Origin: Actinomycetota bacterium | Lineage (GTDB): Bacteria > Actinomycetota > CALGFH01 | NCBI GenBank assembly: GCA_036395655.1 | Contig: DASWDC010000054.1 | Location: 1 to 25,036, forward strand | Length of the DNA: 25,036 bases | Reading direction: 5' to 3' | Shown here: piece after piece, positions 1 to 1,532 of the stretch | Layout: the number at the start of each line of letters is the position of its first letter | How positions within the stretch are numbered: position 1 is the first letter of the stretch | Program-made: the position numbers and the translations under genes | Notes under the pieces: model-generated | Told to the model about the DNA's origin: nothing | The model's input: only the letters and a program-made list of their open reading frames with translations | Database searches by the model: none

Positions 1-211
1 TATGGATGGCCTTCAGCATCCGCTGATAGGCGGGCCTGGGCTTGTCGCCGGTTGCTGAGACGTCGTTGTCGGTGTAGACGTGAGCAATCCGATCGCCGCG
101 CCGATCGGCACCGTGCTGGCAGTCCTCGATCTGTCGCCGCACTCCCAAGGTATCCTCGGGGTCGAGAACCTGGCTGATGCGGGCGTAGATGGCGCCGGAC
201 TTCATGGGCAT
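1..211 (-). CDS. Large serine recombinase/integrase, N-terminal catalytic domain (partial, continues beyond the window's left edge)
   Basis: Manual translation of the minus strand from ATG 211 gives MPMKSGAIYARISQVLDPEDTLGVRRQIEDCQHGADRRGDRIAHVYTDNDVSATGDKPRPAYQRMLKAIH. This carries the serine-recombinase motifs YARIS (catalytic Ser), RQxxxC and YxDNDVSA...RPxYxxML. The frame is open to the window edge. Absent from the ORF track. Confidence 0.88.
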   Translation of the reverse strand, partial: MPMKSGAIYARISQVLDPEDTLGVRRQIEDCQHGADRRGDRIAHVYTDNDVSATGDKPRPAYQRMLKAIH

Positions 212-250
212 ACCACCACCTTACTATGTGATTTGCGACTCGTGGCCCAG
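212..250. mobile_element. Probable attL/attR junction of a serine-integrase element inserted in paaK
   Basis: AT-richer tract (ccttactatgtgatttgcgact) lies between the recombinase start (211) and the point (~242-245) where PaaK-like sequence (AQHGLHVNEDH) and high GC3 codon bias begin abruptly. The exact crossover cannot be fixed without the other end. Confidence 0.6.
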
Positions 251-823
251 CACGGCCTGCACGTCAACGAGGACCACTTCCTGGTCGAGGTAATCGACCC
301 TACGACTGGGTCGCGGGTTGCGGCGGGGGAGCGGGGGGAGTTGGTGTTCACCACGCTGACCAAGGAGGCGATGCCGCTGCTGCGCTACCGCACGGGTGAC
401 ATCGCGACCCTGGACCGCTTGCCGTGCCCGTGCGGGCGCACGCTCGTCCGGATGTCGAAGGTGCTCGGCAGGGTCGATGACATGCTGGTGGTGCGGGGGG
501 TCAACGTCTATCCGAGCGAGGTTGAGGCGGTGCTGCTCGCCGAGCCTGGGGTGGGGGCGCAGTACCTGCTGGTGGTGGATCGGACGCGGACGCTGGCGGC
601 GCTTGAGGTCGTCTGCGAGCTGGCGGAGGCGGCGTCCGGGGGCGGGGATCAGGCGCATCAGGCGGAGGGGGTCCGCGCCGCGGTCGCGCTGGCGTTGGAG
701 CGCCGGCTGGGGTTGCGCCCCGAGGTGCGGGTGCTCGCCGCGGGGACGCTTCCCCGTACCGAGGTTGGGAAGGCGAGGCGGGTTGTGGAGCGTTCAGCGG
801 AGCACGACCCGCTGACGCTGTAG
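242..823 (+). pseudogene. paaK: 3' half of a phenylacetate-CoA ligase (PaaK-like) gene, interrupted by the element
   Basis: Motifs GLHVNEDHFLVEVIDP, GELVFTTLTKEAMPLLRYRTGD, GRVDDMLVVRGVNVYPSEVE and GKARRVVER match the C-terminal part of PaaK-type acyl-CoA ligases. The N-terminal half is absent. The first ~54 aa of track ORF 80..823 are the antisense of the recombinase. Confidence 0.8.
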
Positions 824-959: not shown

Positions 960-1532
960 ATGGGCAAGGTTGTGGTGACGGAGTTCATCTCGCTGGATGG
1001 CGTGATGGAGGACCCGGGCGGGGCGGAGAAGGACCGCTACGAGCGTGGCGGTTGGACGTTCCAGTTCGACCGTGGCGAGGAGGGCGACAAGTTCAAGTTC
1101 GACGAGTTGATGGCGTCTGACGCGGGGCTGCTTGGGCGGGTGACCTACGAGGGGTTCGCGAAGGCGTGGCCGGCGATGGACACCGACGACTTCGGGCGCA
1201 AGCTGAACTCCATGCCGAAGTTCGTGGTCTCGTCGACGCTGGAGAACCCAACGTGGAAGAACACGACGGTGCTCCGGGGCGACCTCGCTGAGGAGGTCGG
1301 CAAGCTGAAGGAGCAGTTCGCCGGCGACATCATGGTCGCGGGGAGCGGGCGGCTGGCGCAGTCGCTGCTGGCGCGCGACCTGGTGGACAGGCTGCACCTG
1401 ATGGTCTTCCCGGTGCTGTTGGGGGAGGGCAAGCGCCTGTTCGCGGACGGCACGGACCTGACCAGGTGGCAGCTCGTTGAGACGAAGCAGACCGGCGAGG
1501 TCGTGATCCTCGTCCTCGAACGGGAGCGGTAG
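960..1532 (+). CDS. Dihydrofolate reductase / RibD C-terminal domain family protein
   Basis: Motifs VVVTEFISLDGVMEDPGG, LLGRVTYEGF, NSMPKFVVSSTL, GSGRLAQSL and FPVLLGEGKRLF. Start moved from 885 to ATG 960 because the RBS ggagggtgatc precedes it. Confidence 0.85.
   Translation: MGKVVVTEFISLDGVMEDPGGAEKDRYERGGWTFQFDRGEEGDKFKFDELMASDAGLLGRVTYEGFAKAWPAMDTDDFGRKLNSMPKFVVSSTLENPTWKNTTVLRGDLAEEVGKLKEQFAGDIMVAGSGRLAQSLLARDLVDRLHLMVFPVLLGEGKRLFADGTDLTRWQLVETKQTGEVVILVLERER

Follow-up and report, generated by a model that had tools for sequence, protein, structure and literature searches.

The window, the whole stretch of DNA analysed here (25,036 nucleotides), comprises all of contig C54, the longest contig of the source genome G000, which was assembled from a soil metagenome (2.2 Mb, 364 contigs, 57% complete). 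On the minus strand, positions 2 to 211 encode the N-terminal 70 residues of a large serine integrase, with the ATG start codon at 209 to 211; the gene runs off the contig start and is cut by the contig end, not by mutation. The translated 70-amino-acid open N-terminus (MPMKSGAIYARIS...) matched the Pfam Resolvase family (PF00239) with an E value of 3.1e-8 over profile positions 2 to 59 of 145 and contains the motif YARIS; a resolvase-type catalytic domain with its nucleophilic serine is therefore present in the window itself. The integrase gene is preceded by a leader that contains a ribosome-binding stretch (CCACCACC, plus strand) and, as predicted, the element-side, attP-derived half-site (212 to 236). 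On the other side of a boundary at 236 to 245 follows the 3' part of a gene for a PaaK-family aryl/acyl-CoA ligase on the plus strand (242 to 823), comprising 193 codons and a stop codon (821 to 823), with neither a 5' half nor a start codon of its own.

A metagenome scan returned a single contig, L020 (WNGD01154532.1, 1,710 bp), which was found with a 33-mer across the integrase start and encodes a complete recombinase of 482 amino acids; the window integrase is 96% identical to its residues 1 to 69. Besides the Resolvase domain (PF00239, E 4.3e-28, residues 7 to 154, including DLDRLHRR), the L020 protein contains the Recombinase (PF07508, E 3.3e-12) and Zn_ribbon_recom (PF13408, E 1.2e-6) domains, which are present also in P0001, and it matched PHROG 95 'integrase' with an E value of 3.9e-91. 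Judged by these domains, the L020 recombinase is a true large serine integrase, and 96% identity over the overlap suggests the same full domain set for the window integrase, of which the window carries 70 codons. The earlier note had described a minus-strand serine-recombinase N-terminus at 1 to 211 abutting a stop-free paaK 3' half, which the matches to PF00239 and TIGR02155 confirmed; the recombinase and zinc-ribbon domains that it proposed to look for in the full recombinase were found in the L020 homologue.

A further homologue, encoded on a contig of the Logan assembly of SRR13443334 (L042), shares 79% amino acid sequence identity with the L020 integrase. The closest phage proteins to the latter were Mycobacterium prophage serine integrases (36–39% identical). 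Genome searches at the order level and at the level of the host class, for which 22 genomes were available for comparison, gave no closer integrase than those already found, and scans of genome-contig and viral-contig collections by protein and by 24-mer gave no match. Look-ups of the window and L020 proteins as exact sequences, in collections from which near-identical records are withheld, were likewise negative. The unpublished genome G022 underlies none of the claims made here. The best NCBIfam match of the integrase was the XisF model NF041201, with a score of 85.3 bits against a cut-off of 375. The integrase gene has a GC content of 63.5% versus 71.8% for the window and a GC3 of 74–81% versus approximately 90% in flanking host genes, a composition that looks foreign to the host. 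Its dN/dS ratio was 0.08–0.14 (0.135 over 481 codons for L020 versus L042), and dS and dN values of 0.32 and 0.025, respectively, were obtained for the N-terminus between the window and L020; on these ratios the integrase is under purifying selection. Another serine recombinase gene of G000, on contig C126 (5011–5460; L013, 1477–1926), also runs off a contig end and was considered as the missing part of the window gene. It was rejected as a small recombinase of the Hin/resolvase type, unrelated to the window integrase (31% identity over the catalytic domain).

The ligase fragment is stop-free from 242 to 820 and contains an AMP-binding_C_2 domain (E 2.5e-18). It aligned to positions 244 to 421 of 422 of the PaaK model TIGR02155 (E 6.8e-52), with about 243 N-terminal residues missing. 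Within the host family, at least 15 genomes encode a full-length orthologue of approximately 441 amino acids (67–74% amino acid sequence identity), and the similarity of the orthologues to the window started at nucleotides 242 to 245 in every comparison. In all six relatives whose loci (11–19 kb) were compared, the orthologue is followed by the same UvrD/HRDC helicase gene, and in most of them a histidine phosphatase gene, hutH and hutU come next, as in the window. The shared syntenic slot and the common start of similarity indicate that the fragment sits at the place of the ancestral gene and that foreign DNA begins at approximately 236 to 245. As for the interval downstream, the helicase gene lies within approximately 50–150 bp of paaK in most of the six relatives; in the window, a gene for a 190-amino-acid RibD_C-domain (dihydrofolate-reductase-like) protein (960 to 1532, plus strand) is located between the paaK stop codon and the helicase gene, and it had no match at the corresponding place in any of the six.

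The paaK fragment shows no decay. It has neither stop nor frameshift. Of the 104 columns counted as invariant in 11 relatives, one alignment artefact and one column at the junction were set aside; the fragment retains 100 of the other 102, which are properly aligned, among them those of the GRxDDMLxxRGVNVYP hinge and of the C-terminal GK motif. Its identity to the relatives is 66–71%, and the relatives share 69–96% identity among themselves. Over the 44 codons comparable with L020, dS was 0.51 and dN 0.076, giving a dN/dS ratio of 0.15.

The orthologue P0121 scored 501.8 and 502.7 bits on TIGR02155 and NF041878, respectively, below the cut-offs of 646.3 and 700, and is thus to be regarded as a PaaK-family member of uncertain substrate. 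Accordingly, of the proposed phenylacetate-CoA ligase the family membership holds, whereas the specific assignment falls short of both equivalog cut-offs. In the relatives, the gene lies outside a paa catabolic cluster; its upstream neighbours in G012 encode a class-V aminotransferase, a ThiF-rhodanese protein, a WhiB protein and a radical SAM protein, and downstream again follows UvrD/HRDC. Searches of same-family relatives found no orthologue in G005, G006, G011 and G018. In G020 (C21, 35236–35809), the orthologue is split into two adjacent frames overlapping by 2 nt, owing to a frameshift or a sequencing error, and in another soil lineage (L057, 324–1386) a 78% identical orthologue is cut at approximately residue 213 by a DDE_Tnp_1 transposase gene. 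As it was not found, is frameshifted or is disrupted by an insertion sequence in several relatives, the ligase gene looks dispensable, which would be more in keeping with a landing site than with a gene under regulation.

To locate the boundary between the element and paaK, the DNA was compared with that of 11 intact orthologues. The identity with paaK begins approximately 14 nt before GGCCTGCAC at position 254, which puts the predicted crossover zone at 236 to 245. The adjacent stretch at 246 to 290, the putative host-side (attB-derived) half-site, contains the codons of the conserved peptide GLHVNEDHFLV and is strongly conserved among intact relatives. The same codons, as the reverse complement, adjoin the integrase leader in L020, which shares 91% nucleotide identity with the window, and in L042. 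The junction is common to three lineages, whose integrases show identities of 100%, 96% (N-terminal part) and 79%. It is also bridged by unitigs: record 10 of the Logan unitigs X2 covers positions 201 to 277 with 0 differences, and a 342-nt variant unitig (X3, X4) covers 4 to 277 with 25 differences. X1 and X2 are perhaps the source sample filed twice; L020, L042 and X3/X4 are independent. All runs that contained the window sequence were soil metagenome DNA. The junction at approximately 236 to 245 is genuine and non-chimeric.

All three sequences (window, L020, L042) agree at every position from 198 to 230. The window and L042 also agree throughout the approximately 36 nt that lead up to the junction, at 80% identity of their integrase DNA and with 44–54% of synonymous sites differing. 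By a rough estimate (0.8^36), the chance of such a 36-nt identity is approximately 3e-4; the stretch thus points to a constrained leader plus a predicted integrase-binding half-site. The integrase ATG is located approximately 30 bp from the boundary, and this proximity would place the attachment site of the element directly upstream of the integrase gene, as in its relatives. The bases flanking the boundary vary among the three inserted lineages, and for this reason the crossover is assigned to a zone rather than to one dinucleotide. As a candidate for the crossover core, a dyad centred on TCGA in the predicted attB was considered; on inspection it conflicted with a T at that place in 3/3 inserted lineages and was rejected. 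The paaK frame itself is open leftwards through the junction (59 to 823, plus strand), antisense to the integrase N-terminus, with a GTG at position 80, where L020 has an ATG. This open frame is probably an artefact of high GC content; it could permit translation of the paaK 3' fragment.

The element edge is known from this one, integrase-proximal junction. A tblastn search of G000 for the paaK 5' half with the N-terminal halves of 11 relatives identified just a 27% identical paralogue on contig C61, and in this 57%-complete assembly neither a search with short peptides nor a fuzzy one for the att arm in inverted orientation found anything. The end of contig C139 holds the radical SAM gene that lies approximately 2 kb upstream of paaK in relatives, and the contig stops before paaK. 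Given the completeness of the assembly, the absence of the 5' half means little. Truncated PaaK N-terminal products were also considered as candidates for the missing half and its junction, and were all rejected: P0125 (L050) is a frameshifted gene from long reads, P0124 (L057) is the copy disrupted by an insertion sequence, and the remaining ones are read-level artefacts. Many PaaK-like proteins of approximately 280–282 amino acids, consisting of the N-terminal domain only, are encoded on contigs of 74–305 kb from unrelated metagenomes, which suggests a naturally short or split family.

Both sides of an insertion were seen for a related element in the family member G005, the integrase of which is 50–53% identical to that of L020. 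On contig C103, 40 bp separate the start of the G005 integrase gene from a preceding cpaF/tadA-like ATPase gene, which is broken right after the Walker-A motif GKTTT, and the matching cpaF 3' half is found on contig C412, 420 bp from the contig end. The two halves tile the T2SSE profile (6 to 159 and 155 to 272), with ACCAC as shared core of the two att junctions. When joined in silico, they gave an in-frame protein that aligned colinearly to the intact paralogue on C55 of G000. Further members of the clade lie inside cpaF-like genes in L052 (P0013) and L051 (P0048). Together with the retained halves in G005, these sites suggest that the clade makes clean, reconstitutable splits of coding genes. 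By analogy to the G005 element, excision would also reconstitute paaK.

The L052 integrase is 50% identical to that of L020 and 84% to that of G005, and the 76-kb L052 record carries genes for a DUF2637 protein (PHROG 'excisionase'), Prim-Pol and SSB. A TrwC relaxase gene is found near the integrase gene in another relative, and L020, L042 and G005 have in common a short conserved ORF that runs convergently to the integrase gene. The cargo of the clade looks like that of a small replicative integrative element rather than that of a phage.

Two further observations concern the cpaF insertions. L052 (330–425) and G005 (C103, L056; C412, L054) have near-identical integrase-proximal arms (CGTGATA...) next to their 84% identical integrases, and are inserted at the same cpaF codon in opposite orientation. 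The integrase gene adjoins the cpaF 5' half in G005 and the 3' half in L052, which is unexpected, as the insertion orientation of serine integrases is normally fixed. In L051 (8610–12070), a cpaF-like fragment (approximately residues 99 to 321) lies between two different large serine recombinase genes, each of which starts approximately 26–35 bp away from that fragment. One gene thus seems to have received two separate insertions; P0048 (689 amino acids) is a gene-caller fusion of one of these integrases with the ATPase fragment.

We consider it likely, with a probability of about 0.78, that the locus represents an integrative element which used its own large serine integrase to enter a chromosomal PaaK-family CoA ligase gene. 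The window up to approximately position 240 would then be the integrase-proximal end of this mobile element, and positions 242 to 823 would be the displaced 3' part of the interrupted gene, which the insertion would have inactivated. An integrative element with one end in a phenylacetate-CoA ligase gene had already been proposed in the earlier note, and the syntenic full-length orthologues, the domains of the L020 integrase and the recurrent junction bear out the structural part of this proposal, with a PaaK-family gene as the insertion site. If the 5' half persists at the far end, the integrase together with a directionality factor would excise the element and rebuild the gene, an event that would belong to the ordinary life cycle of a mobile element and not to a host-regulated switch. 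Rather than a large prophage, the element itself is probably a small replicative integrative element with genes for Prim-Pol, SSB and a DUF2637 or excisionase-like protein, a cargo extrapolated from elements whose integrases are only approximately 50% identical.

An assembly error that joined two unrelated molecules at position 240 would give a similar picture, and the join does lie 240 bp from the contig end in a fragmented metagenome-assembled genome, with a shift of the GC content. Against such a chimera, a unitig without differences runs across the join, the variant unitig does so in other samples, and L020 and L042, from two other assemblies, share the junction with diverged flanks on both sides. 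A chimeric join at this place, the objection anticipated at the outset, is thereby effectively refuted. It is unlikely, too, that the locus is a dead-end remnant from which deletion or rearrangement has removed the 5' half of paaK or the attachment site at the far end, with a gene beyond rebuilding and a 3' fragment that is a pseudogene. This would agree with the missing 5' half, the dispensability of the gene in relatives and the bases at the junction, which vary freely between lineages. However, a half missing from a 57%-complete assembly weighs little, and a pseudogene fits poorly to a fragment with its frame intact, nearly all of its invariant columns retained (100/102) and a dN/dS ratio of 0.15. 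The integrase and the att half-site are constrained as well, and the related element in G005 has kept both halves of its target.

The junction shared by three diverged lineages fits either an old insertion of which both parts were kept by selection or independent insertions into diverged hosts. In the former case, the interruption would be old, fixed and vertically inherited, with selection acting on the integrase, the att half-site and the 3' half, and conditional, periodic excision would rebuild the ligase gene and turn it on, as in the skin/sigK, nifD and fdxN systems. Such a domesticated excision switch appears quite improbable to us. In its favour, the dS values of integrase and paaK fragment between the window and L020 are similar (0.32 versus 0.51) and compatible with co-divergence, both genes are under purifying selection (dN/dS 0.08 and 0.15, respectively), the att half-site is perfectly conserved, and the best, though weak, NCBIfam match of the integrase is XisF. 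Yet this match reached 85 bits against a cut-off of 375, the estimate of selection on paaK derives from just 44 codons, and independent site-specific insertions account equally well for the shared junction. The GC3 of the integrase (74–81%) has not drifted to the 90% of the host, which argues against long residence and favours independent insertions, in a sample too small to decide. Moreover, the orthologue was not found in four relatives (G005, G006, G011 and G018), is frameshifted in G020 and is disrupted by an insertion sequence in L057. The suggestion of the earlier note that the element is a candidate metabolic on/off switch is unsupported: the ligase scores below the cut-offs, is encoded outside a paa cluster and was not found or is broken in several relatives. 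If such a switch did exist, the periodic excision would represent, for metabolism, what the sigK and nifD switches are elsewhere, and would do so in an actinobacterial class that is uncultured.

Developmentally excised elements that interrupt genes are represented by skin/SpoIVCA-sigK in Bacillus and by the nifD and fdxN/XisF elements in cyanobacteria. The paaK element resembles skin and fdxN in that a large serine recombinase gene lies at the edge of an element interrupting a protein-coding gene, and precise excision would restore the frame, as predicted for paaK. It differs in its XisF score below the cut-off and in a composition that suggests a mobile rather than a domesticated element. Classical AICEs rely for the most part on tyrosine integrases and tRNA genes; the likeness to AICE-like elements lies in the Prim-Pol, SSB, DUF2637 and, in one case, TrwC relaxase genes beside the integrase genes of related elements. 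The elements targeting cpaF/tadA (G005 C103 and C412, L052/P0013 and L051/P0048) have integrases 41–53% identical to that of L020, with starts 26–40 bp from the junction within a conserved coding motif and a small convergent ORF after the integrase gene, and in G005 both target halves are kept. They hit the Walker-A region of a T2SSE ATPase and not paaK, and the paaK element was seen at one junction.

The insertion of serine integrases into coding genes is well known. A close precedent is the Streptomyces phage SV1, with its attB inside SCO4383, a gene for a presumed 4-coumarate-CoA ligase (PMC4068962). Both cases combine a large serine integrase, an attP beside the integrase gene (predicted here) and the truncated gene of an adenylate-forming CoA ligase of an actinobacterium; here, in contrast, the ligase belongs to the PaaK-type subfamily with an AMP-binding_C_2 domain and the host to an uncultured soil lineage. 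The paaK-element integrase also differs from those of phages, none of which exceeded 39% identity to it in the phage collection searched, and phage structural genes were not seen in the related elements. In full-text literature searches, no paper was found that connects a serine recombinase or attB to paaK or phenylacetate-CoA ligase, in line with the earlier note, which knew of no described paaK-targeting case. The event would thus be of an ordinary kind, and what appears to be new is the insertion site in a PaaK-family gene, for which no describing paper was found.

The locus adds a natural integrase/attB pair, with a predicted attB, from a barely sampled soil lineage, and its integrase clade appears to land repeatedly in conserved coding motifs, paaK here and the cpaF Walker-A region in its cousins. 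Such pairs may supply genome-engineering toolkits and help to map how the target specificity of serine integrases changes. For the host, the biology would be ordinary, with a mobile element in a dispensable-looking gene. Conservation of the target site throughout the host family would make the potential host range of the element predictable.
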